From assembly GCA_043756865.1 (NCBI GenBank), contig JAYUQG010000025.1, positions 921 through 64,920 on the forward strand: a DNA stretch of 64,000 nt, given 5' to 3'. A model generated the notes under the pieces. The model was given only the letters and a program-made list of their open reading frames with translations. It was not told the origin of the DNA and made no database searches. Within the stretch, counting starts at the first letter, position 1. Each line of letters starts with the position of its first letter. This DNA comes from a bacterium. GTDB taxonomy: Bacteria > Patescibacteriota > Minisyncoccia > Phycocordibacterales > UBA6899. Shown in pieces: positions 29,021 to 64,000 of this stretch. A program made the position numbers and the translations under genes.

Positions 29021-29080
29021 GAGTCTAGCCTGCCTTTCGAGCGGGTGGTTGGGAGAGGGGGGGGTTGGTGGGAAAGCCCA

Positions 29081-39728: not shown

Positions 39729-41205
39729 AACCTTGGCGATACGCACGAACACACAGCATAAAGAGCAGTGCATAGACGACACACACAACAAATCCCGATA
39801 CGGGAGGGATGGTTATATATCCAAATGGAATATCGGCAAATAATCGTCCCATTGCAATAATGTATGAAAGTGACACATACGCAGGAATCGCCGCGATAAG
39901 CCCAAATCCAGTACCAAAAAACGCGCTCAGTCCTCCGACAAAAGAGAAAAGCATCGCTGCGGGAATAATTGGGAGTACGAGTATGTTTACCAAAAGTCCG
40001 ATGAGCGATAGCCCTCCGCTACCGTAGATGAGGAGTGGCGTAACAAACAGTTGGGTTGCTACCGTTGAAAGGACAATCTCTTCAAGCTTTGGCCATGCCC
40101 GCAAGCGGGTGAAGTGCATCTTGAGTATAGGCACAAATAGGAGTAATCCTGAGGCAGCAAGAAATGAAAGTTGGAATGACGGATCATACAGCAGAATTCC
40201 CGGTGCATGGAGCACCATTAATGCCCCCGCAAAAAGCAGTGCGCGAGACATGTCGTACGTACGACCCAACACTCGCGCAAGAAGCACAAGTAGCGCCATC
40301 AGCATTGCACGTATGACGGTGGCACTTCCGCCAGCCATTATTCCAAAGAGCGTCACACCAAGAGCAGCACAGCCGATACTTCCCCAGAATCCCGTGAAGA
40401 GAAATATGACACGAAGCCACTCTGCAACAATCGTCATATTGTAGCCGGACAGAACTACAATATGAATAATTCCACTTTGCCGAAAATCTTCGGTGAGCGA
40501 GTCTCCCAGTGAACGCTTGTCGCCAAGGAGAATTCCTCCGGCCAATGCCCCTGAAGGGTCAGGAAGTACTTTGCCAAGCTGTTCTTTGAAACTTGCTTTT
40601 ATGCGGAGCAACATACCTTTTACGGGATTTGCCGCACTATCTCCCGTGCGGGTTATGGTGGGGCGCGACAGAGTAAGACGAATGTCCTTTGCCGCAAGGT
40701 ATTGGTCGTACGCAAACACTCTTCCGTTTTCTGTTTCGAACAACTTGGGTCGTGCCAGTGTTCCGCGGAGTTCGATGACTTCGCCGTATACATATGTGGG
40801 GTAGATGTCCGTTGATACAAGCACGAGTGCGTCAACGGGAGTTTTTTCGGAACTGATTGTGCGCAAGCGCACCGTGAGGTTCACCTTATGCTCCCGCACA
40901 TCAGGCTCCTCAGCGATAACACCACGCATAACCGCCTCCGTCCCCACCGTTCGTGCTAATTCGGGCTGCACTCCCGTATTGCTCCAATACCCAAACCGCA
41001 ACACTCCAACGGCAGCACAAAAAAGCATGATTCCACAAACTACAAACAGGCGCTTTCTGCGCACGAGTCCCACGAAGAGTACAACTCCAGCAAGCAAAAG
41101 AAAAAGCCCCACAACCCCAACATCAGCAGCAAACACACCTGCAAGGAAAATCCCCGCAAGGAAAGCGAGGAGAAAAAAATGGATATATTCGTTCAATAAA
41201 CGCAT
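39697..41205 (-). CDS. comEC: ComEC/Rec2 DNA-uptake channel protein (membrane competence domain only, no MBL domain)
   Basis: DUF4131-like N-terminus plus competence domain (IIHIVVLSGYNMTIVA). 502 aa with multiple TMs. Confidence 0.8.
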   Translation of the reverse strand: MRLLNEYIHFFLLAFLAGIFLAGVFAADVGVVGLFLLLAGVVLFVGLVRRKRLFVVCGIMLFCAAVGVLRFGYWSNTGVQPELARTVGTEAVMRGVIAEEPDVREHKVNLTVRLRTISSEKTPVDALVLVSTDIYPTYVYGEVIELRGTLARPKLFETENGRVFAYDQYLAAKDIRLTLSRPTITRTGDSAANPVKGMLLRIKASFKEQLGKVLPDPSGALAGGILLGDKRSLGDSLTEDFRQSGIIHIVVLSGYNMTIVAEWLRVIFLFTGFWGSIGCAALGVTLFGIMAGGSATVIRAMLMALLVLLARVLGRTYDMSRALLFAGALMVLHAPGILLYDPSFQLSFLAASGLLLFVPILKMHFTRLRAWPKLEEIVLSTVATQLFVTPLLIYGSGGLSLIGLLVNILVLPIIPAAMLFSFVGGLSAFFGTGFGLIAAIPAYVSLSYIIAMGRLFADIPFGYITIPPVSGFVVCVVYALLFMLCVRAYRQGSTFREKSPRG

Positions 41206-48216: not shown

Positions 48217-49683
48217 TTACAGCTCATCCCACGAAAGAATTTGATATTGATCGGTGGTGAGAGGAAATGAGGGGGGTGGTCCATACAGAAGATTCGCATC
48301 AAAAGTGGAAATTTGTGATGCATAACCAGAACAATACGATCCGCACGACCATGAGAACGTGTAGCGCTGATTGCTTATCAGTGAGCCGAACGTAGTTATG
48401 CTGTTGCGCAGATGTGAGGCTCCACAGCTGGCACCGTAATAATCTCGCCAAATTGCACCTGACTGCGCGAGCAAAGCGCCGTCAATTCTGAGATTGTCTG
48501 CGCTTGCGTAACCAATGCGGATATAATTCTGTGCGATTAACCCAATAACGTCTGTTCCGTCCATGCGGGTATAACGAATGTCGTTGTTCACAATAATGCT
48601 TGCCCGCGTGGTCGGATTATCTGGAAAACGCGCTGCAGCAATTGTGAGCCTACTACCATCTATCGTTCCTTCAACCCAGACGTCATCTTCGGTAAATATG
48701 AGTCCGTTCGCGGGATAGGCGACGTTTCCAGCGAGCAGTGTCTCTGTTTGTATGCTCCACATGCCTCCACCAGGGTCTGCGTACGTGTACCAAGCAGCAC
48801 AATTTGCGGCAGGAGAAGGGAGTCTTGCGGTTACTATGTAAATATCAAGCACCCCTGTAGGCTTGAGTACAATATGATATCCGAGCGCGCCCGAAGCACC
48901 ATAATAGAGACCCGATGCTTGTGCTCCAGATTTAATTATTGCGAGGTCAGCCATCATTCCAGTAAAGTCCACTGCAGGAACGGCAACTTGCCTGCCAGCC
49001 ATAAACACGTCTGGACGATTGGGTATAGCAGAAGGTGGGGCGGGGTCGCCCGTGGGGTATGTTGGGAGCAGAGGCTTGTCGGTATACACTCCGAAGTGCG
49101 TCCCGCCGAAATCTGGATCTACGTAGGTAGCTCTCGCGCTCGTCACAACATTGTGTGCAACTACGTTGCTGAAGTGCACTCCCCCGTTTGCGTGATACAA
49201 TCCAAAAAATTCAACTTGGTCTTCCCACACATCGGTATTTGTCACCAGTGCGTATTTCGCAAACGAAGGCTTGGCAAATCGCGCTTGAATTGAGCGCGAA
49301 ACGGTTGGTTCATTGTCGATATTTCCGGTTGATTTCACTGTCACAAGAGTGCTTCCCACTGTGGGTGGTGTGATGTCAAGTGTATATGATCCAATTTTTG
49401 TACCACTTTTGTCATAGTAGTCATGCACGTACGGCCCGGTAGTACCAGTACCGTCTTGGTAATCAGTGGGGGCATGCGCTAAATGCCATCGGTAGTAATC
49501 GATTCCTGCCTCAGCAACGGCGAGGGCTTGTTCTCGCGCCTCAGAATGCCTCGCTACACGCACAGACATAACGCCCCAGCCAACTAAACCGGATAGAAAT
49601 ATCATCCCGATAGTCATAAAGGCGATGACCTGAATAAGTATTCCTCCGCGCTGCGACACATGTTTCGCCAATAAAAATTTCAT
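48217..49683 (-). CDS. PilX-N-like type IV pilus minor pilin/tip protein
   Basis: N-terminus QRGGILIQVIAFMTIGMIFLSGL resembles the PilX N-terminal domain. 488 aa. Confidence 0.6.
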   Translation of the reverse strand: MKFLLAKHVSQRGGILIQVIAFMTIGMIFLSGLVGWGVMSVRVARHSEAREQALAVAEAGIDYYRWHLAHAPTDYQDGTGTTGPYVHDYYDKSGTKIGSYTLDITPPTVGSTLVTVKSTGNIDNEPTVSRSIQARFAKPSFAKYALVTNTDVWEDQVEFFGLYHANGGVHFSNVVAHNVVTSARATYVDPDFGGTHFGVYTDKPLLPTYPTGDPAPPSAIPNRPDVFMAGRQVAVPAVDFTGMMADLAIIKSGAQASGLYYGASGALGYHIVLKPTGVLDIYIVTARLPSPAANCAAWYTYADPGGGMWSIQTETLLAGNVAYPANGLIFTEDDVWVEGTIDGSRLTIAAARFPDNPTTRASIIVNNDIRYTRMDGTDVIGLIAQNYIRIGYASADNLRIDGALLAQSGAIWRDYYGASCGASHLRNSITTFGSLISNQRYTFSWSCGSYCSGYASQISTFDANLLYGPPPSFPLTTDQYQILSWDEL

Positions 49684-49688
49684 ATTTG

Positions 49689-50345
49689 TTATAAGTTGTC
49701 CTTCAGGTTACGAATTGATACTTGCGTTGTATAGGTTTGATACACCGGAGAACGACCGACGTTTGGGTCAACGGCAATATTCATCTTCACAAGCCGGACC
49801 GAGGAAATTAGCACGGGCCACGGAAGTGGGGCAGTTGATGATGCTACGCCATTGTATGTCGCATCGTAATAGGTAAATATCGGCGTCGTTGAAGAATTCT
49901 TTACATCACGAACTATTGTTGTGAGGACTTCCTGAGCTCCATTATAAAACGTTCCCGTTGGCTTGATGACTCCTTTTTTAAGCACATTGTGCACACCGTT
50001 ACTTGAAGATGTGGAGAAAAAATAGCGCACGCGCTCAACATCTCCTCCGCCATCAACATCAGAATAGAAGACGATAGAAGAAGTCGCGATTGATTCGATG
50101 GTGTATGTACCCGCCTCAGAAGGAGAGGCCGAGCGCAACTCTGAAACAAACGATTGTAAGGTTTTGCGTATTTGCTGTTGTGCAAGCAAAGAACTTTGCA
50201 ATATTTTGGAATTCGAAATAATCCCTTTTTGAAATGCAAAAATTCCCGAGCCCATCATCGCAAGTATACCCACCACCACGAGTACCTCGATAAGCGTAAA
50301 CCCCCGAGAAACGCTTTTTGGTTTTTCACAACGCAGTGCATGCAT
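49689..50345 (-). CDS. Prepilin-type minor pilin
   Basis: Class III signal peptide: SRGFTLIEVLVVVGILA. Confidence 0.65.
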   Translation of the reverse strand: MHALRCEKPKSVSRGFTLIEVLVVVGILAMMGSGIFAFQKGIISNSKILQSSLLAQQQIRKTLQSFVSELRSASPSEAGTYTIESIATSSIVFYSDVDGGGDVERVRYFFSTSSSNGVHNVLKKGVIKPTGTFYNGAQEVLTTIVRDVKNSSTTPIFTYYDATYNGVASSTAPLPWPVLISSVRLVKMNIAVDPNVGRSPVYQTYTTQVSIRNLKDNL

Positions 50346-50447
50346 ATACAGTCATTATATCTCTAAAATGAACATGCGTATCACTTGTTACGCATCCCTC
50401 TAGCCATGTATCGCCACAGCACTCAGCTAACCGAGCGCGGGGCGACC

Positions 50448-52265
50448 CTATGGCATCATTCCCACCTGCTTCTCCTGCCACGGGGTGCCCGCATTCACCA
50501 CAACCGTGTCTACTGTAGTGCTATATCCTGTCTTTGTAACAGTGAGATTGTATGTGCCATTCGAAAGACCTTGAAAAATGACTTGCCCTGGCGGCACACA
50601 CGCGGAAGTGAATGTAAACTGTGCATCAGAAATATTTGGGGTGAGCGTACTCGACGCGGTGCTTAAATACATCTTGTAACGCAAATAGCGGTGGCCATTG
50701 TGTGCCGGCGAAACATCGGTTGTGGTCGACGTGTAAAACGTGCTGGCAGTACCGTCGGGGCCTATATAGTTCCAAGAACTCGTCGAATTTCCTGTTGCAA
50801 GATGAAAAAGCGCGCTATTTACCCCCGTATCCGGTGGTTGGGTTGAAGGGAAAAATGTAAATTGATAGAAATTAGCGGGTGCCCCAGTATCAAATGTTGA
50901 CGAGGTAAGCTCTCCACTTGGTGAATAGGTACCAAGAGATTCTCTCAACTGTACCCCACCGGGGAGCCCTGACGTATCAATGTTGCCGTCATTGCTCGCA
51001 TGCATAGTAATATCCCCAATGTCACTTTGGCCCGAACCGCCCGACCAGTCTGTCTGACGAAGGTACCCTCTCCCCGTAACTTCCGTCGTAGAGGCACCCC
51101 CCCGTTCAAGTTTGACCGTAGCACCAGTAACAGGCAGCCCTGTTCCCACATCCTTCACGGTCACCACTACTGAGGACGGGTTTTTAGGCACCATTACTAA
51201 CTGTATGTTCTGTGTTGCACCGGGGGCTATGGCAATCGGGGTAAGCGGAACGATTCCCGCAACATCATATGCACTTGAAGTTGCAATAAGTGCGTATGAG
51301 TCCCACTCCACACCACTAAGCGTTTTTAATCCAGCACCATTGGTCATGGAAAACATATCGTACTTAAATACGTTGGGTGTAGTCGCAATAAGCTTACTTC
51401 CCGTGAGCTGAAAATTCACATTTGGTACAACTGCACATGAGGGAGTCACACTTGAAAAATCTAGTGTCGCAGTACGATCAATCATAAACGTAAGTTGTGT
51501 CACCGCTTGTATGGCAACCGTTGCATGTGGTTTCACGGGATTCGTTGTCGTCGGTGCACCATACGTTTGTTCTGATGAGTATCCCGTTTTACTCACGGCA
51601 ATTTCATACGACCCCACTGCTGGTGGTGCCCCAACAAGCTGCAGCATGCCCGTGAGCGTTGTGCTGTCGTTGATATTTACCACGGGCACACTTGACCCAT
51701 TGTACACACGCACATTTGCGGAAGGTACAGGGAGCCCACCGGAATCAATGACACGCACAAACAATGAACCATCAGTGGAGGCGCTCTCGAGATTGAGAGG
51801 AGCAATGCTCGTGGTAAATATTAGCGGACGGAAATTTGGACAGGATACACAGGATAACTCAACCTCCACCAATTTATTATCTGCAGGAGAAAGGTCATCA
51901 GGGGCACCGCCGGCAGTACCATCAAATGGCTGGTCAAGGTTACGAACAGTTGTTGTGGAAATGAACGTTTTTCCTCCAGAAATGACTGTCTGCACGGGTG
52001 GAATCACTCCCGCAGGAATTCCCCCAATGGTTCCCACCTGAGCATACGGAAGATTGCGGATAATTTCGAACTGCGCGTTCGCCGCAGCTGTTGCGTCTAC
52101 TCGCGCCTGTGCATACCGCGCCACCACAAACACGCGTTGATACGTTGCAAAAATGGTTGTCGCGATAAAAGCAAACAAGGCAACACCAATCACTGTTTCA
52201 ATAAGTGACAGGCCACGCATATGCCCTGCATAATTTGTTGAAGAAATATATGTTCGGTTGATCAT
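50448..52265 (-). CDS. Large prepilin-type protein (605 aa)
   Basis: RGLSLIETVIGVALFAFI prepilin N-terminus followed by a long Thr/Ser/Gly-rich beta-rich body. Confidence 0.6.
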   Translation of the reverse strand: MINRTYISSTNYAGHMRGLSLIETVIGVALFAFIATTIFATYQRVFVVARYAQARVDATAAANAQFEIIRNLPYAQVGTIGGIPAGVIPPVQTVISGGKTFISTTTVRNLDQPFDGTAGGAPDDLSPADNKLVEVELSCVSCPNFRPLIFTTSIAPLNLESASTDGSLFVRVIDSGGLPVPSANVRVYNGSSVPVVNINDSTTLTGMLQLVGAPPAVGSYEIAVSKTGYSSEQTYGAPTTTNPVKPHATVAIQAVTQLTFMIDRTATLDFSSVTPSCAVVPNVNFQLTGSKLIATTPNVFKYDMFSMTNGAGLKTLSGVEWDSYALIATSSAYDVAGIVPLTPIAIAPGATQNIQLVMVPKNPSSVVVTVKDVGTGLPVTGATVKLERGGASTTEVTGRGYLRQTDWSGGSGQSDIGDITMHASNDGNIDTSGLPGGVQLRESLGTYSPSGELTSSTFDTGAPANFYQFTFFPSTQPPDTGVNSALFHLATGNSTSSWNYIGPDGTASTFYTSTTTDVSPAHNGHRYLRYKMYLSTASSTLTPNISDAQFTFTSACVPPGQVIFQGLSNGTYNLTVTKTGYSTTVDTVVVNAGTPWQEKQVGMMP

Positions 52266-52288
52266 ATCAAAAACACAAACAAGGAAAA

Positions 52289-54118
52289 TTAAAACTCATT
52301 CCATCGATTCGCATTCCATGCTCCTGTAGTAGAGGTGGCCGAGGATGTAAATGTGAGACTTGCCACTATCGGGTCGTAATTGATCGCCGCGTTGTTTTGC
52401 AGACTTATCATGTAACCCACAACGGCGGTAACAACAGCATTATTTGATATATCAAGCAACGACTCGGTCGTGTAAAAAAGCGCTCCGTCAACGTTATTTT
52501 CTATCGCCAGTGCGCTATTATTTGTCGTGCACCCCGTACCCACCGTACCCATGCACCCTTGTTTTGTAGAAAGCAGCATCACAAAACTTCCGGGAGTTCC
52601 CGAGCCCATAAACGTCACGTTATTACGCACACGAATATAGCCATCCACAATCACCACACAACTATTGCCTAGAAAGGCGAATGCGCAACGGACCTGACTA
52701 TTATTATTGACATCCATATTTCCCGTAATGTGCAGAGTCCCATTTATCGTCAAGGTCACTCCCCCATCAATAACTAAATTACCGTCTATCTTCTTCGGGC
52801 CCATCGCCAATGGAAACGTATTGCACGCTGGAACTCCGCCCACACCACAGTTGCCAGTAATCGTCGCTCCGGAGGCCGCGTCCGTTTTCCACTGAGCAAT
52901 GGTTGTAGTGGAAAGTGGGAGCGGAATACTGGGTGGGGTTGGTGAACCAGGGAATGAGGTTCCTCCAACGGTCGACCCCGAAATCGTTTGGTAGTAGGCG
53001 CTACCTCCAATTGTTGTATTCACAATGGAATCCGCTTTTGCGGCACCGGAAATAACGAGGTCTCTAATTTGACTCACTCCTCCTCCAAGTGTGATTTTAA
53101 AAGCCATGTCGCCCGCAACGGCAGTCCATGCCCCCGCAGTACTCCAGTCTAATTTATAAAAAGGTGAATGGCCCGCATATGTATCGCTATTGCTTCTACA
53201 CCACGTCCAATACTTGGAAGCGCTCTGCGTCGCATCCAACACAATCCAATATGGAGTTGCAGGATTAAGCGTTGCCGGAACAGTAAACCCAATATCAACC
53301 CAACCATACGTAGTAGCGACCAAGGAATTATCGAGTACTTGGGTAGCGAGTGCTGTCGTACCCGGTGCCCCTGCATTGTCCGCCACAATCTGTATATTTG
53401 CACCTGTGGGGTTGCTATTGCGTTTTATATATAGAGACACCTTTGCGAGAGGAGACGGGGTGGACGTACTAATCATAAAACGTTGGGCAAAGTCGATATC
53501 CGGGTTCGCGCGACCCACTGTTTCATCTACCACACAAATGGTTGAACTTGCCAACATGTCCGCAGCCAGCGATGAGCCAGAAATTGCATTTCCGGTAATC
53601 AGCACATTAGAGCCTCCGATAATTTGCCCACTTGAATAGACGTCACCATTTGCTAACCCGATTCCATCAATGGAAGTGTTGTTACTCAGCCGTAGTCCGC
53701 CCGCACCCACCTGTGCACCGTATGGAAAATTCACACTGACAGACTTATTCATCTTCATAAACAACTTGCGAACTTGTTGCTTTGAAACTCCAGTAGAATA
53801 AATTTCTCTTTCCGTGACGGTGACATCAACGACTGCCACTGTTGTGGTCGCACCATTCATCACGAGCGTTTGGGAGGCAGGTACATTACGTCCAGTAATT
53901 GTGCGGTAAAAAATATCTTCGATTCCCGCCTCTGCGACAACATGGGCATATTTTGATGTTACCAGCCCACTGTAGAGGCGAAGTTCGGCTATTGCGACAA
54001 GTGTGACCATCTGAAGAATAGCAACAGATATTCCCACAAAAAACAAAATAACAAGAAGCATGGCTGCACCGCGCGAGCGTTGAACTGATCCACGAGTTGT
54101 TACTGGTGTGTGTGTCAT
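52289..54118 (-). CDS. Large PilX-N-like pilus protein (609 aa) with repetitive Asn/Gly/Thr-rich segments
   Basis: SRGAAMLLVILFFVGISVAIL N-terminus. Repetitive GN/NN-rich C-terminus suggests a beta-helix. Confidence 0.55.
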   Translation of the reverse strand: MTHTPVTTRGSVQRSRGAAMLLVILFFVGISVAILQMVTLVAIAELRLYSGLVTSKYAHVVAEAGIEDIFYRTITGRNVPASQTLVMNGATTTVAVVDVTVTEREIYSTGVSKQQVRKLFMKMNKSVSVNFPYGAQVGAGGLRLSNNTSIDGIGLANGDVYSSGQIIGGSNVLITGNAISGSSLAADMLASSTICVVDETVGRANPDIDFAQRFMISTSTPSPLAKVSLYIKRNSNPTGANIQIVADNAGAPGTTALATQVLDNSLVATTYGWVDIGFTVPATLNPATPYWIVLDATQSASKYWTWCRSNSDTYAGHSPFYKLDWSTAGAWTAVAGDMAFKITLGGGVSQIRDLVISGAAKADSIVNTTIGGSAYYQTISGSTVGGTSFPGSPTPPSIPLPLSTTTIAQWKTDAASGATITGNCGVGGVPACNTFPLAMGPKKIDGNLVIDGGVTLTINGTLHITGNMDVNNNSQVRCAFAFLGNSCVVIVDGYIRVRNNVTFMGSGTPGSFVMLLSTKQGCMGTVGTGCTTNNSALAIENNVDGALFYTTESLLDISNNAVVTAVVGYMISLQNNAAINYDPIVASLTFTSSATSTTGAWNANRWNEF

Positions 54119-54123
54119 ATCAC

Positions 54124-54642
54124 TTAGTACGTACCGCGCATAATCGTCGTATTATAAAAATGATCAATGTCGGTGATAGACCCACGAGTGGACTCGAGAT
54201 GCAGCTCCGTCTTTACCCCAATTGTGGCACCTGCGGCGACATAGTAAAAAACCAGTCCGTCTATTTTTGTACGGGAAGAAAGAAGCGAGCCGCGGTCTAC
54301 TCCATTTTCCCTGACGCGCAAAGACGATGTCGCAACATAATACTCAACGGTCATTGACGTCCCCGATGCGCTCACGGTTTGAAAAGTGAGGCGACCGGGA
54401 TTTGCCCCGAATGTGCTGTTCACAAGATCGATTTGCGTTCCGCCTCGGAGATCGCGGGTGAGGCGCTCCATCACCGTCACGGCTGAATCATTAATATCTC
54501 GTGTCGCGCGAAGTTCATTTGAAATACGGATTGCACTCATGAGCGAATTCACTAGCACGACTGATATCATGGCAAATAGCCCAATGTAGACAGTGAGCTC
54601 TACCATTGAAAAACCCCTCTGTTTGTTATGGTACATCTGCAT
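54124..54642 (-). CDS. Prepilin-type pseudopilin
   Basis: QRGFSMVELTVYIGLFAMI. Confidence 0.65.
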   Translation of the reverse strand: MQMYHNKQRGFSMVELTVYIGLFAMISVVLVNSLMSAIRISNELRATRDINDSAVTVMERLTRDLRGGTQIDLVNSTFGANPGRLTFQTVSASGTSMTVEYYVATSSLRVRENGVDRGSLLSSRTKIDGLVFYYVAAGATIGVKTELHLESTRGSITDIDHFYNTTIMRGTY

Positions 54643-54643
54643 A

Positions 54644-55162
54644 TTAGTTGCTGAAAAGGTTCGTTATGTAAGTTTCAGCCGAATCGGTGGTAGAAGCATT
54701 TCCGCCCTTTCTTGGCCAAGACACGTCGATATGAATCTTTTTTGTACCTGGATCGTGTGTTCCAGTGCTCGCGATTGTGTCATTCACGTCACGAAACACG
54801 TCGGTAATAAGCACGCTTCTGGTAAAGACGTTCTCAATTTTTTGCACGGTAGTTGTGGCACCCCATACGGTGCCGTTCCAATATAGATAATACGCGGTGG
54901 TTGTCGAAAGTGGTGCGACGCGGAGTGCCCAGCTTTCATCGCGCAGAAGCTTTATAACGTCCATTCCCTCCTCAATTAAAAATCCGGACTGTATGTGGCG
55001 TGTAGTATCCTGACTCACATCAAGCACTTTCTTGTAATAGGTAACAAGCGCAACCATAAAAAATGAGAAAATGCTTGCAACAACAACTACTTCGATGAGG
55101 GAAAATCCGCGCGCGTTCGGAGTTTTCTTTATTTGGTAAAGTGGGGTACTTCTTGAGTGCAT
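54644..55162 (-). CDS. Prepilin-type pseudopilin
   Basis: ARGFSLIEVVVVASIFSF. Confidence 0.65.
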   Translation of the reverse strand: MHSRSTPLYQIKKTPNARGFSLIEVVVVASIFSFFMVALVTYYKKVLDVSQDTTRHIQSGFLIEEGMDVIKLLRDESWALRVAPLSTTTAYYLYWNGTVWGATTTVQKIENVFTRSVLITDVFRDVNDTIASTGTHDPGTKKIHIDVSWPRKGGNASTTDSAETYITNLFSN

Positions 55163-55243
55163 ACGTACTCTAATTGCTGGGGTGCCGCCTTTTGCCTGCA
55201 GTCAGATTACACCCAGTATAGCAAACAAGATGCAGTGCAGGAA

Positions 55244-55729
55244 TCACTGGAGAGAAACAACACCAACCTGACTAATACTGATGGTGTTCTTGGTCGTGGT
55301 TGCAGACTTTGCGCGCACCACAAATGACCCATACTGCATGGTCCCCCCCTGAATACGACCAAAGAATACTTCCGCTCCCCCACCATTCAGGCTAATGTCC
55401 GCAATTTCTACAGTGGAAGGGAGTTTGTACCGGATATTCCCCACAGCAGTATCACCAGGATATGTAGCACCTTTAAAATAAATAACTTCGTCACTTTGTA
55501 CTGCAACCCCGTAGGGGCTGTCGTTTTTTGAGGAAATAGTGTCGAGGTGCGCCTGAGAAAACGCAACCATCACCATTTCGACGGCGGCATCAAGGTTCTT
55601 GCGTGCGCGAAATTGCGAAAATGAGAGGATAATAACCGCAGCAATAAGCGACATGATCCCAATGGCGATCACCATATCCACAAGTGAAAAACCTTGCTGG
55701 TACTTACGGGCTATAATTTTGTACTGCAT
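55244..55729 (-). CDS. Prepilin-type pseudopilin (GspH/FimT-like)
   Basis: QQGFSLVDMVIAIGIMSL. Confidence 0.65.
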   Translation of the reverse strand: MQYKIIARKYQQGFSLVDMVIAIGIMSLIAAVIILSFSQFRARKNLDAAVEMVMVAFSQAHLDTISSKNDSPYGVAVQSDEVIYFKGATYPGDTAVGNIRYKLPSTVEIADISLNGGGAEVFFGRIQGGTMQYGSFVVRAKSATTTKNTISISQVGVVSLQ

Positions 55730-55751
55730 ACATCAGGAATGTCCTAGCTGT

Positions 55752-56969
55752 CTAGATATTCGTCATGAGGGTATACATCGGAGTAATCATTGCGATGGCA
55801 AAAATACCCACAAAGATTGCGATAGTTACCATGAGTAGCGGCTCAATGAGTTTCGACATGTCCGCAGTAGCCTGATCAACTTCTTCTTCATAAAAAATAG
55901 CAATCTTTAAAAGCATTCCGGAGAGTTGCCCCGTCTCTTCCCCCACTTCCATCATGTCTCCAACCATCACCGGATAAATTTCAGCATTGTCGATAAACAC
56001 CTTTGAAAGCGGCACACCTTTCTGCACGTCTGCCTTCGCCTGATCAAGTGTTTCCTTGTAAAAAATATTAGTCGCAACATCCCTGGTGATTTCAATAGCG
56101 TGCACAATGTCGACGCCAGCAGAGATGAGCGAGGAAAGTGTGCGTGTCACAAGCGCAGAGTTGAATTCCTTAATCAGCTTTCCAAAAATCGGAGAGCGCA
56201 GTACTGTCCACGCTATCGCACGGCTTCCATACGGCGTTGACTGAAACCACCAGAACGCACCTCCAAATATTGCAGCGCCGAGAATCGCAAACAGGTAATC
56301 ATTTTGCAAGAAATCACTCACCGCGATAACTCCACGCGTAAGTGGAGGAAGAGCAACTTCCATTTCTTTAAATGTCGAAGAGAGTCCGGGAACGACATAA
56401 ATCATCATCAGCACACCGACGGCGAGCATGACGAGAAGCACAATCGCGGGATACATCATCGCGCCCTTCACTTTCTTTTTGAGTGTGTAAGTCTTCTCCA
56501 TTTGCCCACCAACGGTATTTAATGCTTCAACAAGACCCCCCGACTCTTCTCCCGCACGCACCATTGAAACAAATACGGGCTCAAATACCTTGGGAAACTT
56601 TTCCATTGCGTCGGAAAGTGCAATGCCTTTATTGATATCCTCAATAATGGAGCGAAGCACTTCGCGCATTTTTGGGTTCTGTGTTTGCTTCAAGAAGATT
56701 TGGAGAGAGCGCGAAAGAGGAAGCCCAGCTTGTATCATGGTTGCAAGATTACGTGAAAGCAGAATCTTTTCACGCAGGTCAACGCGAGAAAGGAACGCGT
56801 TAATCTTATCCATATTGAAAGAATGCTCCGACATCTCGGTTGCAGTAAGTAGCAGTTTCCCTTCTGCCTTCATGTTCTTTGCAAGCTCGAACTTATCAGA
56901 CGCCTCACCAGTACCTTCCATTTCAGCGCCGGTCGCCATGAGCTGCGCCTTGTATATATATTTTGGCAT
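55752..56969 (-). CDS. pilC: Type IV pilus platform protein PilC/GspF
   Basis: Two GspF repeats, three TMs. Start at MPKYIYKAQL. Confidence 0.85.
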   Translation of the reverse strand: MPKYIYKAQLMATGAEMEGTGEASDKFELAKNMKAEGKLLLTATEMSEHSFNMDKINAFLSRVDLREKILLSRNLATMIQAGLPLSRSLQIFLKQTQNPKMREVLRSIIEDINKGIALSDAMEKFPKVFEPVFVSMVRAGEESGGLVEALNTVGGQMEKTYTLKKKVKGAMMYPAIVLLVMLAVGVLMMIYVVPGLSSTFKEMEVALPPLTRGVIAVSDFLQNDYLFAILGAAIFGGAFWWFQSTPYGSRAIAWTVLRSPIFGKLIKEFNSALVTRTLSSLISAGVDIVHAIEITRDVATNIFYKETLDQAKADVQKGVPLSKVFIDNAEIYPVMVGDMMEVGEETGQLSGMLLKIAIFYEEEVDQATADMSKLIEPLLMVTIAIFVGIFAIAMITPMYTLMTNI

Positions 56970-57044
56970 ACTGTTTCTATTATATAGTATTCTTTTGAAA
57001 CAATTGGGGCATTTGCGCGACGAATGTGTACAACCCACTGACCT

Positions 57045-57620
57045 TTACCTTGCGACCTCACTACATGGTGCAAAATCACACATAGGTGGGACCCGTTTTG
57101 CATTCTCACCGTTAGGGCAAACTTTTTGGTCTGGAGTACACATGACTCCTCCACCGGGCAATTTTACTCTTGCCCTGTTTGCCGTCGTCGGATCTGGGGC
57201 TGGTGAAGTATTTGCCTCTACTGATGAGCTTGCAGTAGTATTTTTAGGCACAACAACCGCAGTCACCTGTGTGCTGTCTACTGAAAGACTGGAAATCACA
57301 TAGCGATCCAATAAAACGTAAGTAAGTGCAGCAAACCCAAGAATTGCCCCAAGTGGGAGCATCCAATGCGTCACAAAGTGTAGTAAACTGCGACCCTTAT
57401 GCAGTAAATGTTCCTTGCGCTCTATGCTTTTCAGTTCATCGTGCTCAAATGCATCTTTCAGCGTGCTTCTTTTTGTCAGGTTCAAAAAGTTTCTCCCGTA
57501 CTGCAAATCTTGAGGTGACCATGTACCGAGCATGAGCTGCTGTTCAATCTCGTCATCACGCAAGCCATCAAGGCGTGCCTGCTTAATTTGTGCAATAACG
57601 GGCTTTTCCGATTCATCCAT
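57045..57620 (-). CDS. Bitopic membrane protein of unknown function within the pilus cluster
   Basis: Cytoplasmic N-terminus, one TM (LPLGAILGFAALTYVLL), extracytoplasmic Cys-containing tail. Start chosen at MDESEK. Confidence 0.4.
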   Translation of the reverse strand: MDESEKPVIAQIKQARLDGLRDDEIEQQLMLGTWSPQDLQYGRNFLNLTKRSTLKDAFEHDELKSIERKEHLLHKGRSLLHFVTHWMLPLGAILGFAALTYVLLDRYVISSLSVDSTQVTAVVVPKNTTASSSVEANTSPAPDPTTANRARVKLPGGGVMCTPDQKVCPNGENAKRVPPMCDFAPCSEVAR

Positions 57621-57681
57621 ATAAATAATTATACAGCAAAGCAGATACTTCTCCACAACCGAGGCTCCTCAGCTGTGCTAC

Positions 57682-57700
57682 AAAAAAACCGAGCATGTGC
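57682..57700 (-). terminator. Rho-independent terminator
   Basis: Minus strand: ccgagc-gcacat-gctcgg followed by TTTTTTT. Confidence 0.55.
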
Positions 57701-57707
57701 GCTCGGT

Positions 57708-58022
57708 TTATAACTTCGTTTGCTTTTCAAGATAAAAATCCCAGACCGTACGTCCTCCAAATCCCCCACGCTCCGCTCGCTTCTTGTCGCGCAATGCATA
57801 CAGTTGATGCATGGAAATTGACTTGTGTTCCGCAAGCGCGCGAATTATCTCAAGTATGTCTGCGAGCTCCTCGGGAGACTCGCTATCCATAAACTCTATA
57901 ACCTCCTCAAAAAGCTTCTCTTTCAAAAGCGCCGAATACTCAGCGTCAGAAGCGACATGTGTGAGCATTGTCTCCCCTTTGGCCATGGCGATTTCAGGTA
58001 TCTTATCGCGAATCAGTTTCAT
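57708..58022 (-). CDS. MazG-like nucleotide pyrophosphohydrolase (small single-domain)
   Basis: 104-aa all-alpha protein with EExxE/EELADILE metal-binding pattern of the MazG/HisE-like fold. Confidence 0.65.
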   Translation of the reverse strand: MKLIRDKIPEIAMAKGETMLTHVASDAEYSALLKEKLFEEVIEFMDSESPEELADILEIIRALAEHKSISMHQLYALRDKKRAERGGFGGRTVWDFYLEKQTKL

Positions 58023-58153
58023 GGGACAATTCCCTCATATCTTACTGCTTCTATGCTACTGGGCAAACCGCATTCGGGCAATTTTATAGAGTACGGTTGC
58101 CACAACTGCACAAGTAAGTGTGCGCAGCTCCAGCAAAGGAGGTGAATTAAGCG

Positions 58154-59944
58154 TTATTCGCTTACGACTCTATAGACCTCCTCAATGGTGGTCTGCCCTT
58201 GAGCTGCCTTATAGATACCATCTTCAAGCATTGTGAGCATGCCTTCTTTGCGTGCTTGGTCTTCAATCTTCTCGGCAGATGAATTCACTACCGCAAGGTC
58301 ACGGATGCCGGTCGTCATACGGAGCACTTCATGGATGCCGATACGTCCTTTATATCCCTCATCACACTCTGGTGAGGACTTCGGTTTGTAAAACGGAATA
58401 TTGTCCCAGTCGGCGTCCTTGCCTACAACATTTTCCTCTTTGAGCGCCTTGAGTACGCGGTCGAGATTTGCCTTCTTTCCGAGTGCATCAATTTCTGCTT
58501 TTGTGAGTGTGTATTTTTCTTTGACACCGCAGAGCTTGCGCACAAGTCGTTGCCCAATAATAACGTTCACGGTTGAAATAATAAGAAACGGCTCAGCACC
58601 CATGTCGATAAAGCGCGGGAGTGTGCCGGCTGCGGAATTTGTATGCAGTGTCGAGAGCACAAGATGTCCGGTGAGTGCCGCATTGATGCCGAGTGAGGCG
58701 GTTTCACTATCACGAATTTCTCCCACCATGATAATGTCAGGGTCCTGACGCAGTAGCGCGCGCAAGCCCATGGCAAACGTCAATCCGATATCAGGCTTCA
58801 CCTGTGTTTGGTTGATGCGTGGCATCTGATACTCAATCGGGTCTTCAATAGTGGAAATATTTACGTCAGGTTTATTCAAAATGTCGAGCACCGTATAGAG
58901 CGTTGTTGTCTTTCCCGAACCCGTTGGTCCTGTAACTAAGACCATGCCCACGCGTTGATTCATCGCATCATGCAGCGCCTCAAGACCTTGTCCATGAAAC
59001 CCGAGTGACTCAAGCGAAAATCCACCCGATGATTCCCGCAAAAGACGCATAACCGTCTTTTCACCGTGATGTGTGGGAAGTGTCGAAACGCGGAATGACA
59101 CTTTTTCGTTGTTCAATTGAATCTTGAAACGACCGTCTTGAGGGAGACGTTTTTCATCAAGTTTCAAATTTGAAAGCACTTTGATTCGCGCGGTAATACC
59201 CGGCGCGGAGTCGCGAGGCAACACCATCGCATCGTGCAGAATACCGTCGATACGGTAGCGCACGAGCAATTGGTTTTCCATCGGCTCAATATGAATATCA
59301 GATGCGTTTTGAATAATTGCATGATTCAACAGCGTATCCACGATACGCACCACAGGCAAATCTTCGGCGAGCTTCTTCAGGTCCTTTTCTGAGGCAGGAT
59401 TGTCCTCGTCATCTGCAAGCATTTGAATCGACTGTGCCTCCTGTTGAATAATGTCACCAAACTCCGCCTTCAGTGATTTCTGGTACTGCAGTAGCGCACC
59501 CTTCACAGAGTCTTGGTCAGTGAGACGAGTCAAAACACGCGTTCCTACCTTTTTGCGCACAAAGTCGATTGCTTCGAGGTCGTCAACATCGAGCATCGCA
59601 ACTTCGAGTCCCGAGTCGGTTTTCCGAAACGCGACGATATTATGCTTCCGCGCGATAGGCTCGGGAATGAGGGAGAGTATTCCAAAATCAATTTTTTGAC
59701 CCTTCAAGTCAACAAATGGAATACCAAGAATGTACGCCTGCACGCGACGTAAATCATCCGAAGAAATCTTGCCCTGAGTGATGAGCACGTCACCGACACT
59801 ACCGCCTGATTTTTCAGCGTCTTTCTCCGCAGACAGGACTTCAGCACGAGTGGCGAGCCCTGAATCGAGTATAAACTTCTTGAGTTTGCTTTCTTGGACA
59901 AGCATGGTTTTTGCTTCCTCTATTATATGTGGTATTTCGTACAT
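58154..59944 (-). CDS. pilB: Type IV pilus assembly ATPase PilB/GspE
   Basis: N-terminal GSPII domain. Walker A GPTGSGKTTT. Asp and His boxes. 596 aa. Confidence 0.9.
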   Translation of the reverse strand: MYEIPHIIEEAKTMLVQESKLKKFILDSGLATRAEVLSAEKDAEKSGGSVGDVLITQGKISSDDLRRVQAYILGIPFVDLKGQKIDFGILSLIPEPIARKHNIVAFRKTDSGLEVAMLDVDDLEAIDFVRKKVGTRVLTRLTDQDSVKGALLQYQKSLKAEFGDIIQQEAQSIQMLADDEDNPASEKDLKKLAEDLPVVRIVDTLLNHAIIQNASDIHIEPMENQLLVRYRIDGILHDAMVLPRDSAPGITARIKVLSNLKLDEKRLPQDGRFKIQLNNEKVSFRVSTLPTHHGEKTVMRLLRESSGGFSLESLGFHGQGLEALHDAMNQRVGMVLVTGPTGSGKTTTLYTVLDILNKPDVNISTIEDPIEYQMPRINQTQVKPDIGLTFAMGLRALLRQDPDIIMVGEIRDSETASLGINAALTGHLVLSTLHTNSAAGTLPRFIDMGAEPFLIISTVNVIIGQRLVRKLCGVKEKYTLTKAEIDALGKKANLDRVLKALKEENVVGKDADWDNIPFYKPKSSPECDEGYKGRIGIHEVLRMTTGIRDLAVVNSSAEKIEDQARKEGMLTMLEDGIYKAAQGQTTIEEVYRVVSE

Positions 59945-59976
59945 GGGAAAGCAAAACGTGTCTCAGCACAGAGCGC

Positions 59977-59989
59977 GGGGGGGGGGGGG
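59977..59989. repeat. G13 homopolymeric tract (C13 on the pilB strand), ~33 nt upstream of the pilB start
   Basis: gcgcGGGGGGGGGGGGGtgaattgaca. Adjacent to the nusA -35 box on the other strand. Confidence 0.8.
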
Positions 59990-59993
59990 TGAA

Positions 59994-60021
59994 TTGACAA
60001 CGGTGCTTGCGTAGGTATACT
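59994..60021 (+). promoter_or_regulatory. Candidate sigma70-type promoter for nusA
   Basis: TTGACA (59994-59999), 16-nt spacer, TATACT (60016-60021). Confidence 0.45.
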
Positions 60022-60119
60022 TATTTCATACAAGCGAGATGCCTTAACGGTATCTTGCTCTGTTTTTTAAATGGAGGAATCTTGTCTATGTTATTCGTTA
60101 TTCGTAATAGGTACTACTT

Positions 60120-61472
60120 ATGTTGGACTTAAAAACAATGAAGTCTGCCCTTGAGCAACTCGAGGCAGAAAAAGGGATCTCGAAAGAGAAAATCATCGAT
60201 GCAATTGAGGCGGCACTTGCGGCTGCGTACAAAAAAGATTACGGGAAAAAAGGGCAGATCGTGCGTGCGAAGCTCGACATGAACACAGGGAAGACTGATT
60301 TCGAGCAGGTGAAAATTATTGTGGACGATACCATGGTCCGTCAGCCGATTGAGGGAGAAGAAGATGAGGATGACGCACCGGTGCGCCCGTTCGTTTCTAC
60401 GCCAGAGGCAATTGTCGGAGCGGAAGGTCAAGGCGATATCGACACGCGCGTTCGCTTCAACCCCGAGCACCACATTATGATTGAGGATGCACGGCTTATT
60501 AAAAAGGATTCGCTGCTCGGCGAAGAGCTTGTATTCCCACTTGATGCAAAAGATGATTATGGACGTATTGCCGCACAGACCGCTAAGCAGGTTATTATCC
60601 AGAAGATTCGCGAGGCCGAGAAAACATCCGTGCTCGACGAGTTTGCGCAGCGCGGTGAGGAGATAGTGAGCGGAATCGTCCAGCGTATTGAGCGTGGCAA
60701 CATTTTTATCGACCTCGGACGCGCAACCGGACTCCTCGCATATGAAGACCAAATCCCCGGTGAACGCTACCGCACAGGAGAACGCATGCGCAGTTACTTG
60801 TACTCGGTAGAGGATTCCCCCCGCGGAGTGAATTTGCGGCTTTCTCGTGCACATCCAAATTTTATTCGCGCACTCTTCTCGCTTGAAGCACCTGAAGTAC
60901 AGAGCGGTATTGTGGAGCTCAAGGAAATTGCGAGAGAAGCAGGTTCGCGCACAAAGATAGCGGTGCACTCAAACGACGAGCACGTAGATCCTGTCGGGTC
61001 ATGTGTTGGCCAGCGGGGTGTTCGCGTCGCGACAGTAATTTCGGAACTTGCAGGAGAAAAAATCGACGTCATTGAATGGTCACCGAGCGCCGAGAAATTT
61101 ATCGCTGATGCACTCTCTCCTGCAAAGGTCCGCAGTGTCATCGTCAATAGTGCAGACCGCCAAGCAACCATTGAAGTGATGCCCGACCAACTCTCCCTTG
61201 CAATTGGACGAGGGGGGCAGAATGTGCGTCTCGCGGCCAAGCTGACTGGTTATCGACTGGATATCAAATCGACCGAAGGAGAGGCATTTGCTGCAGCTCC
61301 CGCAGTCGAGAAAAATGAGACGAAGACCCAAACTCCCGATGAGGAGGTAGCGGAATTTATCGCGTCAGACGAATCAGCGGGTAGCCCGAACCCCGAGACC
61401 GTAACAGCACAAGAGGAAATCATGGAAGACAAGGCGGTTGTTGCGGAGAATACCAACACGGAGCAAGAATAA
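60120..61472 (+). CDS. nusA: Transcription termination/antitermination factor NusA
   Basis: N-terminal domain, S1 and two KH domains (GxxG loops). Acidic C-terminal tail. Confidence 0.9.
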   Translation: MLDLKTMKSALEQLEAEKGISKEKIIDAIEAALAAAYKKDYGKKGQIVRAKLDMNTGKTDFEQVKIIVDDTMVRQPIEGEEDEDDAPVRPFVSTPEAIVGAEGQGDIDTRVRFNPEHHIMIEDARLIKKDSLLGEELVFPLDAKDDYGRIAAQTAKQVIIQKIREAEKTSVLDEFAQRGEEIVSGIVQRIERGNIFIDLGRATGLLAYEDQIPGERYRTGERMRSYLYSVEDSPRGVNLRLSRAHPNFIRALFSLEAPEVQSGIVELKEIAREAGSRTKIAVHSNDEHVDPVGSCVGQRGVRVATVISELAGEKIDVIEWSPSAEKFIADALSPAKVRSVIVNSADRQATIEVMPDQLSLAIGRGGQNVRLAAKLTGYRLDIKSTEGEAFAAAPAVEKNETKTQTPDEEVAEFIASDESAGSPNPETVTAQEEIMEDKAVVAENTNTEQE

Positions 61473-61545
61473 GCACTGCGTCGCGAGGTGCGACTCACAT
61501 AATCCAAAACTTGTAACCTAAAATTATTCTCATAATCTTTTATCT

Positions 61546-62070
61546 ATGAATCTATGGCATGACATTCCTTGCGGGGACAAAGATGGGTTGAATGTGATTA
61601 TTGAAATCCCCATGCTCTCACGCGTGAAGTATGAACTCGACAAGGATACAGGGCTTATCAAGTACGACCGCGTGCTTTACTCGCCCATGCATTACCCGTG
61701 CAACTATGGGTTTGTTCCCCAAACCCTCTGGGATGATGGAGACCCACTCGACGTGCTTGTCTTGGGAGCAGAGCCACTCGTCCCCGGCTGTCTTGTAGAG
61801 GCTCGCCCAATCGGAGTACTCGACATGATCGACGGCGGAGAGGGGGACGCAAAAGTACTCGCTGTACCCACTGCCGACCCACGCTGGAAGAATACGCGAA
61901 ATATCAGCGACCTCGAACCACACTTCCTCGATGAAATTAAACACTTTTTCACCGTCTATAAAGATCTTCAAAAAAAGAAGGTGCAAGTGGGTGAGTGGAG
62001 AAATGCGGAAGAAGCAGCAAAAGATGTTGCAAAATCAATTGCATTGTACGAGAAAAAATTTCCCAAATAG
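61546..62070 (+). CDS. ppa: Inorganic pyrophosphatase (family I)
   Basis: DGDPLDVLVL ... acidic active-site cluster. 174 aa. Confidence 0.9.
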   Translation: MNLWHDIPCGDKDGLNVIIEIPMLSRVKYELDKDTGLIKYDRVLYSPMHYPCNYGFVPQTLWDDGDPLDVLVLGAEPLVPGCLVEARPIGVLDMIDGGEGDAKVLAVPTADPRWKNTRNISDLEPHFLDEIKHFFTVYKDLQKKKVQVGEWRNAEEAAKDVAKSIALYEKKFPK

Positions 62071-62281
62071 TAACGAGGTGCACTTTGATCTCAACATAGC
62101 AACGTCCCATGGATATACCATGGGGCTTTTGCTTCTGTGTGGAAAAGAAGGCTCAATGCTTACTGCTTTTTTCTTCACCTAGCTTTCCCACAGCGATTGC
62201 CCCCCCCTGCAAGAGATTTGCTATACTATAAAAAGCACGGTCTTGCGTACCGCGTATTATTTATTCACTCAATTTTTTGTA

Positions 62282-63250
62282 ATGAAACGAATCAATATCA
62301 TCACTCTCGGTGTTGTGGGATTGGTGTCCCTCACACCGATGCTCACATTCGCTGAAGAAACAACAGTAGCAGCTGGAGCGAACGCAGAGGCAGGGACAAC
62401 AGTTTCCCCGTCTCCCGCACCAACATCGGATAGTTACTCATGGGGTGCCTCCAACCCTTCAACAGTAGGCACAGGAGGCGGCCACGGCGCAGGTCGCATG
62501 GCCTCGGGCACTGACCCAATGGGAAGTGGGGTGAGAAGCCCTCGTGACGCAGCAACAGGGCAATCTTCGGGAAAACGAATGATGGCCAGCGGAACAATGC
62601 CACTTCCTGCGGGAATGGAAATGCGCAACAAAACGATGGCTTCAGGCACGAAACCGCTTCCTCCAGGGATGGAGCAACGCATGATGCATCGCGACCAGAT
62701 GGGGAGTGGCACTGCGCGATGTACGGGCGGCGCAACGGGAACGAGGTGCGCAAACATGGACGAGAACAAGGAAGAGAGAAAAGAACGTATGGATGAGCGC
62801 AAGGAAGAAATGAAGGAGCGCATGCAAGAACGTCGCGGAGAAGTACTCAAGCGTATGTCCGAGCGCATGATTGAGCGCATGAACGCGGCAATTGAGCGCC
62901 TCACAAAGCTTGCTGACCGCATAGACTCACGCATAGCAAAACTGAAGGAAAACGGAGTAGTTACGGCATCTGCCGAGGCAAACATTGCGATTGCACGCAC
63001 CAAGTTGGCGGATGCTAAAGCGGCAGTCCTTGTTGCAAAAGGCGCGGTAGCGAGCGCAGTAGCGGAGGCAGACGCATCAACAGGTAGCTCAACACCCAAG
63101 GGAGTAGGAAAATCAGTACGCGGTGCGCTCGAGACCGCCCGTCAGGCAGTTCTAGAGGCACACAAAGCCGTCGTCGAGGCAGTCAAAAGCCTGAAGGCAA
63201 ATGTGAAAGTCGAAGGACAAACAGGTGCAAGCACAACGGTAGCACAATAA
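62282..63250 (+). CDS. Secreted Met-rich repeat / coiled-coil protein
   Basis: Signal peptide MKRINIITLGVVGLVSLTPMLTFA. Repeats RMASGT.PMGSG / MASGTMPLPAGME / MASGTKPLPPGME. Then KEERKERMDERKEEMKERM coiled coil. Confidence 0.5.
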   Translation: MKRINIITLGVVGLVSLTPMLTFAEETTVAAGANAEAGTTVSPSPAPTSDSYSWGASNPSTVGTGGGHGAGRMASGTDPMGSGVRSPRDAATGQSSGKRMMASGTMPLPAGMEMRNKTMASGTKPLPPGMEQRMMHRDQMGSGTARCTGGATGTRCANMDENKEERKERMDERKEEMKERMQERRGEVLKRMSERMIERMNAAIERLTKLADRIDSRIAKLKENGVVTASAEANIAIARTKLADAKAAVLVAKGAVASAVAEADASTGSSTPKGVGKSVRGALETARQAVLEAHKAVVEAVKSLKANVKVEGQTGASTTVAQ

Positions 63251-63280
63251 TTTATTTCACTAACCACAAATAAGAAACAC

Positions 63281-63598
63281 ATGGAAGGAGAAAAAACAGG
63301 AGGCGCAGCTGCGCCCATGACCCCAGTGAGCGGGGAAAGCAAGGCGGGATTTAACGCAATGCTTATCGTTGTCGTGCTCGCACTTATTGTGCTTGCGGTC
63401 GCCAGCTGGCTCATGATGCAAGATGCTACAGTAACTGTGCCCGTATCCGAAACACCAACAACGGGAGCCATGATTACTGAGGAAGATGTCACCACACAGC
63501 AAATGAAGACTCAGGGTACATCCGACAACATGACGGAAATTGAGGCCGACCTCAATGCGACCAACATGAACTCGCTTGAGGAAATCAATCAGATTTAG
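63281..63598 (+). CDS. Small membrane protein
   Basis: One TM (FNAMLIVVVLALIVLAVASWLMM). 105 aa. Confidence 0.4.
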   Translation: MEGEKTGGAAAPMTPVSGESKAGFNAMLIVVVLALIVLAVASWLMMQDATVTVPVSETPTTGAMITEEDVTTQQMKTQGTSDNMTEIEADLNATNMNSLEEINQI

Positions 63599-63796
63599 TC
63601 GAGCAATGCATGTTTGCAACACCACCCGACCTTGGGTGGTTTTGCTTGCGTGAAGCAAACAAAAAAGCTACTATGCTCGCATTCATCCGCCGAGATTCCA
63701 ATGGAAGATTTATCATTTAGTAACAATGTCAGTGCCCTAACGACTTTTCCGTGAGCGCGTACTGCATACCAAGGAAACTCTAGCGGAGAACATATT

Positions 63797-64000
63797 ATGG
63801 AAGAAAAACACACACATGCGTACACTGTTTCGGTAAAAAAACTGCCGGGCTCGCGTATTGAAATCACTACAAGTATGCCCGCGGAAGAATTTGACGCAAC
63901 ACGCAAGGCAGCAATTACGCGGATTGGTGCAGATGTCGAGTTGCCAGGATTTCGAAAAGGGCACGTACCCGAAAAGGTTCTTGCTGCCAAAATTGGCGAA
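63797..64000 (+). CDS. tig: Trigger factor (N-terminal fragment; continues beyond window)
   Basis: GFRKGHVPEKVLAAKIGE matches the trigger factor ribosome-binding domain signature (GFRKGKVP). GGAGAA RBS. Confidence 0.7.
   Translation, partial: MEEKHTHAYTVSVKKLPGSRIEITTSMPAEEFDATRKAAITRIGADVELPGFRKGHVPEKVLAAKIGE

Follow-up and report, generated by a model that had tools for sequence, protein, structure and literature searches.

The window, by which we mean the whole 64-kb stretch of DNA analysed here, contains an uninterrupted run of 13 G residues (G13) between two divergently oriented genes (Table 1). To the left of this tract, on the minus strand, lies pilB, which is the head of a co-oriented type IV pilus cluster: after it come two small ORFs, pilC (T2SSF), four genes for pilin-like N_methyl proteins, genes for two proteins of ~600 aa, and one for a PilX-like protein. 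To the right, the plus strand carries nusA, a gene for an inorganic pyrophosphatase, and further genes. The sequence-only reading had described the tract as lying in a pilB/nusA divergent promoter region, and this description is borne out, as is its location beside a type IV pilus operon. A ComEC-like competence protein (39697-41205) and RecJ (42394-44112) are encoded no more than ~20 kb from the pilus cluster, and their proximity is consistent with a role of the pili in DNA uptake.

Table 1. Coordinates of the features discussed. Positions are those of the window unless a locus of another genome (L number) is named.
Feature	Position	Strand	Remarks
Remaining type IV pilus genes, co-oriented with pilB and downstream of it	48217-58022	-	Pfam T2SSF, N_methyl (x4), weak PilX_N
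pilB (T2SSE/MshEN ATPase), 583 aa, pilus operon gene 1	58154-59905	-	Pfam T2SSE (2e-126) and MshEN
pilB -10 TATAAT, predicted	59922-59927	-	Promoter scan; within conserved block CATATAATAGAGGAAG
Upstream in-frame ATG, non-conserved	59942-59944	-	Within the predicted pilB -35 hexamer
pilB -35 TTCCCA, predicted, weak, 16-nt spacer	59944-59949	-	Promoter scan
G13/C13 homopolymer	59977-59989	.	Read directly from the letters
nusA-leader -35 TTGACA	59994-59999	+	Promoter scan, promoter matches 11/12; TTGAC kept in relatives
nusA-leader -10 TATACT	60016-60021	+	Promoter scan and five-genome alignment
Terminator-like leader: 11-bp hairpin (60033-60059) and T6 (60063-60068)	60033-60068	+	~50 nt before the nusA ATG
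nusA, 450 aa	60120-61472	+	Pfam NusA_N, S1, KH_5; ATGTT start conserved
Promoter-spacer poly-G, G12	L023 7655-7666		
Promoter-spacer poly-G, G11	L104 6655-6665		
Promoter-spacer poly-G, G9	L128 5791-5799		
Promoter-spacer G5, 17-nt spacer	L110 about 6959-6987	-	Homologous to L128
C9 run encoding PPP	L105 3769-3777		Right after a signal-peptide-like N-terminus (MKRIIFSVAASVAMMLIASMAFA, then VPPPD)

The distance between the tract and pilB depends on which start codon is used. The longest pilB ORF begins at the ATG at 59944, which is not kept in relatives. Alignments with homologues begin at residue 1 of the shorter form, which has 583 aa, several relatives carry in-frame stops immediately upstream of the common MLVQESKLKKFILDS start of PilB, the NCBI product for pilB on this 65,753-bp contig is 583 aa long, and so are nearly all of ~120 PilB homologues. 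The alignment from residue 1, the upstream stops, and the 583-aa calls together place the pilB start at 59905. The tract thus lies 72 nt from this conserved start and not 33 nt upstream of pilB, a figure that had been measured from the non-conserved ATG at 59944.

A promoter consensus scan of positions 59700-60300 returned two sites, one reading towards pilB and one towards the nusA leader, within an intergenic region of 214 bp. The hexamers TTGACA and TATACT of the nusA-leader promoter are separated by a 16-nt spacer. One block, CTTCCTCTATTATATG, shows little or no variation in an alignment of five genomes; its minus-strand form, CATATAATAGAGGAAG, comprises the pilB -10 together with a Shine-Dalgarno-like motif, and the invariant columns among the five relatives are TATTATATG. 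The plus-strand TTGAC, the -10, the hairpin, and the T-run are kept in the same alignment. G13 lies in the segment between the -35 boxes, which alone among the parts of the intergenic region cannot be aligned and which is variable in length: between the pilB -10 block and the nusA -35, relatives have ~38 to 66 nt. At the position of the predicted pilB -35, one of these relatives (L003) reads TTCCAC.

Transcription is predicted to start near 59915 for pilB (minus strand) and near 60028 for the nusA leader (plus strand); these promoters and starts are predictions backed by conservation, not mapped ends. G13 lies 4 nt from the nusA-leader -35, in agreement with the earlier observation that it adjoins this box, and 27 nt from the pilB -35. 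It therefore spans approximately -62 to -74 relative to the predicted pilB start and -39 to -51 relative to the predicted nusA-leader start.

Reading both strands for an alternative pair of hexamers flanking the tract gave none. A minus-strand TTGTCA at 59995-60000 was considered as a -35 and rejected because no -10 follows the tract, and a sigma-54-like GG/GC pair near 59955-59970 was rejected for its wrong spacing. An Rfam search of the intergenic region returned nothing beyond one match at chance level. The conserved block CATATAATAGAGGAAG (59906-59930 and the corresponding positions in relatives) keeps a constant distance to the -10 and not to the ATG, lying 16-20 nt from the start codon, and the predicted pilB transcript would begin within or just after the Shine-Dalgarno-like GAGG, which implies a very short leader. 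Both GC and AT skew change sign at ~60 kb, exactly at the pilB/nusA strand switch; no cluster of DnaA boxes is found nearby (56000-64000), and the skew change most likely reflects gene orientation and not a replication origin.

G13 is the only G/C run longer than 8 nt in the 64 kb, and the next longest are a G8 at 29057 and a C8 at 62200. Counts of G/C runs in the window drop ~4-5 fold per added base up to length 6, and the expectation for G10, derived from 100 dinucleotide-preserving shuffles, is 0.03 per window. The tract also exceeds the length at which slippage of G/C repeats becomes frequent (about 8 or more), as the sequence-only reading had recognised; such runs are slippage-prone in other bacteria. 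Its coordinates are confirmed both by direct reading and by an identical second assembly (L001, Logan assembly of run SRR23617209), which matches window positions 58715-64000 at 100% identity without gaps, G13 included. Two assemblies of this organism exist in the collections searched, and G13 is present in both; as reads may be shared between the Logan and NCBI assemblies, this is agreement between assemblers and not independent sampling.

That the tract is absent or much shorter in the organism itself, having been created by poly-G read artefacts or homopolymer miscalling, is very unlikely, although such an artefact had been raised as a possibility from the start. Illumina platforms are error-prone at poly-G, the same reads may underlie both assemblies of the locus, and in one pair of related loci (L023 and L104) the sole indel is a single poly-G base, so that assembled lengths may be off by one. 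However, poly-G tail artefacts terminate contigs and do not bridge conserved neighbours, whereas G13 is internal to its contig, is flanked by unique sequence on either side, was obtained identically from two different assemblers, and is syntenic with relatives on both flanks, one of which (L003) has a G-rich precursor at the same spot. A chimeric join at the poly-G is ruled out because the divergent pilB/nusA layout and both promoters are kept in relatives. G13 is a genuine and statistically exceptional homopolymer, and its exact length may differ from the assembled one by plus or minus 1.

The closest public relatives are metagenome-assembled genomes labelled Candidatus Lloydbacteria or Paceibacteria (Patescibacteria/CPR). 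NusA is 77-84% identical among species representatives and up to 93% identical in Logan. The divergent arrangement of pilB and nusA also occurs in L002, L003, L007, L036, L067, L163, L166, and L167. The tract is absent from L002, L003, L004, L082, L163, L166-168, L171, and L172, in which NusA is 77-91% identical and the region upstream of nusA is readable, as well as from L173. Upstream of pilB it occurs in no relative, and in the 300 nt upstream of nusA at 155 other loci the longest G/C run is at most 7 nt. The earlier reading had named absence of the tract from relatives with the same promoter as the observation that would tell against it, and in part this is what we find: relatives with both promoters do without the tract.

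The locus L003 provides the nearest equivalent. It carries GCGCGGGCGG directly upstream of the homologous -35, at the position of the tract, and its homologous position reads GGCGCGGGCGG; directly before TTGACA it has AAGGCGCGGGCGG, compared with AGAGCGCG(13)TGAA in the window. This G-rich patch is a plausible precursor for expansion by slippage. The closest relative, L170 (Logan SRR22388068_497677; NusA 93% identical), has a nearly identical leader, and its contig begins at the equivalent of window position 60026, in the nusA-leader promoter region, 37 nt short of the position of the tract. Had the tract itself caused this break, one would expect G's at the contig end. A search of metagenome contigs with the variable-gap DNA pattern AGCACAGAGCGC-N3..30-TGAATTGACAAC gave no match, exact-protein look-ups for pilB (with both starts) and for a 203-aa neighbour returned no record, and the 90% cluster of NusA has one member.

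Two relatives have symmetric elements in the inter-promoter spacer. In L007 (~3843-3878) a perfect palindrome, CCCCCGCGCATGATT-GAGTGC-AATCATGCGCGGGGG, abuts the pilB -10, and in L171 (736-760) another perfect palindrome reads ATTGTCAAGG-CTAAG-CCTTGACAAT. These are operator-like or hairpin elements, located where this genome has G13.

On balance we lean towards G13 being a lineage-specific expansion by slippage, in an unconstrained spacer between promoters and with little regulatory consequence. From the existence and uniqueness of the tract, its place relative to the conserved promoter elements, and its absence in relatives, we infer an origin by slippage, hypermutability, and the lack of a switch function. 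The tract would have grown by replication slippage out of a short G-rich patch of the kind present in L003, would occupy an untranscribed spacer between back-to-back promoters, upstream of both -35 hexamers, and is probably hypermutable in vivo, as judged from other bacteria. Because it is upstream of both -35 boxes and of both predicted starts, a change in its length should leave -35/-10 spacing, the 5'UTR, and the reading frame unaffected, and G's gained or lost would alter the inter-promoter distance alone. Pilus expression would accordingly be expected to depend little or not at all on tract length. At most there may be mild tuning of the adjacent nusA-leader promoter, and the conserved leader terminator, if it acts as an attenuator, would buffer the output of that promoter.

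The positional evidence also bears on the proposal of the sequence-only reading that tract length alters pilB promoter/UTR spacing and turns the pilB-led operon up or down. That proposal is not supported by the predicted promoters: the tract is outside both promoter cores, lying between no -35 and its -10, and upstream of both predicted starts. It is not in the predicted pilB transcript, which begins ~60 nt downstream of the tract, nor in coding sequence, as it is upstream of both the longest pilB ORF (59944) and nusA (60120). By position alone, with both spacers, both predicted transcripts, and every conserved ORF excluded, a change in length is not expected to alter expression.

A phase-variable switch for the pilus nonetheless has some points in its favour, namely a homopolymer length in the hypermutable range, the location of pilB at the head of a co-oriented pilus cluster, a weak pilB -35 that makes dependence on upstream DNA or an activator conceivable, and the presence of variable poly-G tracts in other Paceibacteria promoters. 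Set against these are the location of the tract 27 nt upstream of the pilB -35, outside spacer, UTR, and ORF; the non-conserved status of the ATG from which the shorter distance was measured; the free variation of inter-promoter distance in relatives, none of which has the tract upstream of pilB; and the finding that a Helicobacter pylori tract 30 nt from a -35 has no effect on that promoter (PMC4081817). We therefore regard a switch of this kind as highly improbable, and a slippage-prone repeat of little consequence is more likely than an on/off switch for the pilus.

The reading of the tract as neutral has difficulties of its own. G/C runs of at least 9 nt are very rare in 1.13 Mb of related loci, and since some of those that occur are in contingency-like places, a purely neutral tract is less comfortable than it would otherwise be. 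Type IV pilus operons are a classic kind of target for phase variation, which also counts against neutrality. The tract is 4 nt from a -35, a position at which A/T tracts of H. pylori modulate promoter output, so that by analogy an effect here may be envisaged. Finally, the predicted pilB -35 is weak, and an upstream activator positioned by the tract is conceivable.

Any effect on the nusA side would have to be considered together with the nusA leader. Its hairpin has a predicted folding energy of -17.7 kcal/mol (z -6.1, RNA fold) and begins within ~10 nt of the promoter. The layout of hairpin and T-run recurs in the examined Lloydbacteria-like relatives and in more distant Paceibacteria, with differing stem sequences; between the window and L170 the stem is kept and the loop differs. 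Within the 250 nt preceding nusA, 91 of 150 loci have a terminator-like site on the sense strand, compared with 12 of 150 in antisense controls and 2 of 150 in within-gene controls. The leader matches no Rfam family. NusA stimulates termination at weak terminators, and in Bacillus subtilis and Escherichia coli it autoregulates via attenuation. These features fit a candidate NusA autoregulatory, factor-sensitive attenuator in Paceibacteria, which, if real, would damp a tract-dependent change in promoter strength.

The leader additionally contains an upstream ORF of 14 codons (60088-60132; MLFVIRNRYYLCWT), with a strong GGAGGAA Shine-Dalgarno sequence 8 nt upstream. It overlaps the nusA ATG (60120), and nusA has no good Shine-Dalgarno sequence of its own, so that the overlap could be a case of translational coupling. 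The ORF is not kept in L002 or L003.

Tuning of nusA by the tract has its closest precedent in H. pylori. A homopolymer abutting a -35 may change the shape of the DNA nearby and the way in which upstream DNA lines up with the alpha subunits of RNA polymerase, so that tract length would tune transcription of nusA stepwise and not on/off, as in H. pylori sabA and hp_0350. G13 resembles these cases in being a homopolymer of at least 9 nt located within 20 nt upstream of a -35, from which its end is separated by 4 nt. Moreover, its 4-nt and 27-nt distances are close to those of the divergent hp_0350/pyrG pair, where an A/T tract is separated from the two -35 boxes by 3 and 30 nt and the adjacent promoter responds to tract length (PMC4081817). 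When 5 nt were removed from that tract, the adjacent promoter was altered, but the more distant pyrG promoter was not (PMC4081817, Aberg et al. 2014). By analogy with this geometry, any effect of G13 would fall on the nusA-leader promoter and not on pilB.

Several observations make such tuning unlikely here. The H. pylori mechanism is based on the geometry of A/T tracts, which bend DNA and narrow the minor groove, and on A-box UP-like elements past the tract (PMC4081817), whereas this window has a G/C tract with no clear A-box UP-like element directly beyond it; the first A-rich stretch encountered, GAAAGCAAAAC at 59946-59957, is some 20 nt farther on and coincides in part with the pilB -35. 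In addition, nusA is a housekeeping gene, for which stochastic tuning would be odd; the conserved terminator-like leader would plausibly buffer changes in promoter strength; and relatives do without any tract.

The block might instead have a structural function, as non-B DNA or as a stiff insulator between the divergent promoters. Negative supercoiling builds up between back-to-back promoters, which is where this homopurine/homopyrimidine run sits. The block is, however, short for H-DNA and is conserved in no relative, and its 13 G's are too few for a three-tetrad quadruplex, for which at least 15 are needed by simple arithmetic. A G-quadruplex was accordingly rejected as the main explanation, since the same arithmetic permits a two-tetrad form only, and we consider a structural element of any of these kinds very improbable.

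Expansion in an unconstrained spacer remains our preferred account of G13. Other homopolymers in the clade lie inside promoter spacers. Within promoters of Paceibacteria, a poly-G run of G12 (L023), G11 (L104), or G9 (L128) follows TTGACA and 9 nt and precedes TAGACT or TAGAAT. In L023 and L104 the tract lies between TTGACA and TAGACT, in spacers of 21 and 20 nt, respectively, and in L128 the G9 precedes TAGAAT in an 18-nt spacer. Over 7,135 bp, L023 and L104 share 99.958% identity and have a single indel, the G12 versus G11 tract. L128 and L110 share a homologous promoter and downstream 5'UTR and a common MGI... start. These loci gave no Rfam or tRNA match. Poly-G tracts of uncertain or variable length thus occur at promoters in this clade, and those of L023, L104, and L128 are far better candidates than G13 for a classical promoter-spacer switch.

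Further runs were noted in passing. The C9 run of L105 is in a position typical for frameshift phase variation of a secreted protein. Within the window, the C8 at 62200-62207 lies between TTG and an extended -10 (TGCTATACT) in a nominal 19-nt spacer (62197-62227), upstream of the gene at 62282-63250; in relatives this site has no C run, and a terminator hairpin is joined there to TTTGCTATACT or TTTGTTATACT. The G8 at 29057-29064 (C8 on the coding strand) occupies a short C-rich gap between the minus-strand genes at 29081-30973 and 27971-29020 and has no evident promoter-like context.

As a feature, G13 is a new instance of something already known, an intergenic G/C simple-sequence repeat (SSR) near promoters; it is a single-genome homopolymer at a position where a change in length should have little effect. 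It is useful mainly as a pointer, since few long G/C tracts occur in this clade and some of them are in places typical of contingency loci. The re-annotation is of practical use in that it establishes where pilB starts and where the two promoters and the leader terminator lie. A broader interpretation is that homopolymer contingency switching operates in CPR/Patescibacteria, with G13 as a hypermutable modulator of the pilus operon and/or nusA alongside the G9-G12 spacer tracts of Paceibacteria; we consider this quite unlikely. If it were true, episymbionts with tiny genomes and few regulators would be able to control stochastically the surface structures with which they attach to a host and take up DNA. 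An effect of the tract on expression would make it the first candidate for an SSR contingency locus among CPR bacteria, next to the genes of the pili that presumably mediate contact with hosts and DNA uptake in these episymbionts. The literature searched yielded no paper linking phase variation by SSRs with CPR bacteria; one Gracilibacterium is known to carry a hypervariable 9-mer repeat in coding sequence (PMC6851277).

Among known systems, homopolymers and short repeats in promoter spacers act as switches at Neisseria porA, opc, and fetA, at Haemophilus influenzae hifA/hifB (TA repeats), and at Mycoplasma vlp. G13 resembles these as an intergenic repeat prone to slipped-strand mispairing beside genes for a surface structure, and hifA/hifB are likewise divergent. 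It differs from all of these systems in that their repeats lie between -35 and -10, where length sets promoter strength, whereas G13 is upstream of both -35 boxes. A second class acts from the 5'UTR, as does the poly-G repeat of Moraxella catarrhalis uspA1. For an intergenic SSR of H. influenzae, phase variation is reported to require a 5'-UTR RNA element (PMC12721329). Like these repeats, G13 is located tens of nucleotides upstream of a start codon, as the sequence-only reading had pictured; unlike them, it is upstream of the predicted pilB transcription start, whereas their tracts are transcribed.

The G/C homopolymeric contingency loci of Campylobacter and Bordetella (PMC8355987, PMC1891110) are similar in base composition and comparable in length, are intergenic or intragenic, and are linked to surface structures. 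Those genomes have many tracts with documented length polymorphism, in contrast to the one tract in 64 kb here. Frequent slippage of such homopolymers is established in Neisseria, Campylobacter, and Bordetella and would be expected of a run as long as G13. H. pylori sabA and hp_0350/pyrG are like the present locus in having a homopolymer of at least 9 nt upstream of a -35 and outside the -35/-10 spacer, and hp_0350/pyrG is also a divergent pair. Their tracts, however, are A/T, variable across 49 genomes, conserved at their loci, and shown to tune expression, whereas G13 is G/C and found in one genome (PMC4081817). Of the tracts considered here, those of L023, L104, and L128 fit the promoter-spacer class of switches much better than does G13.
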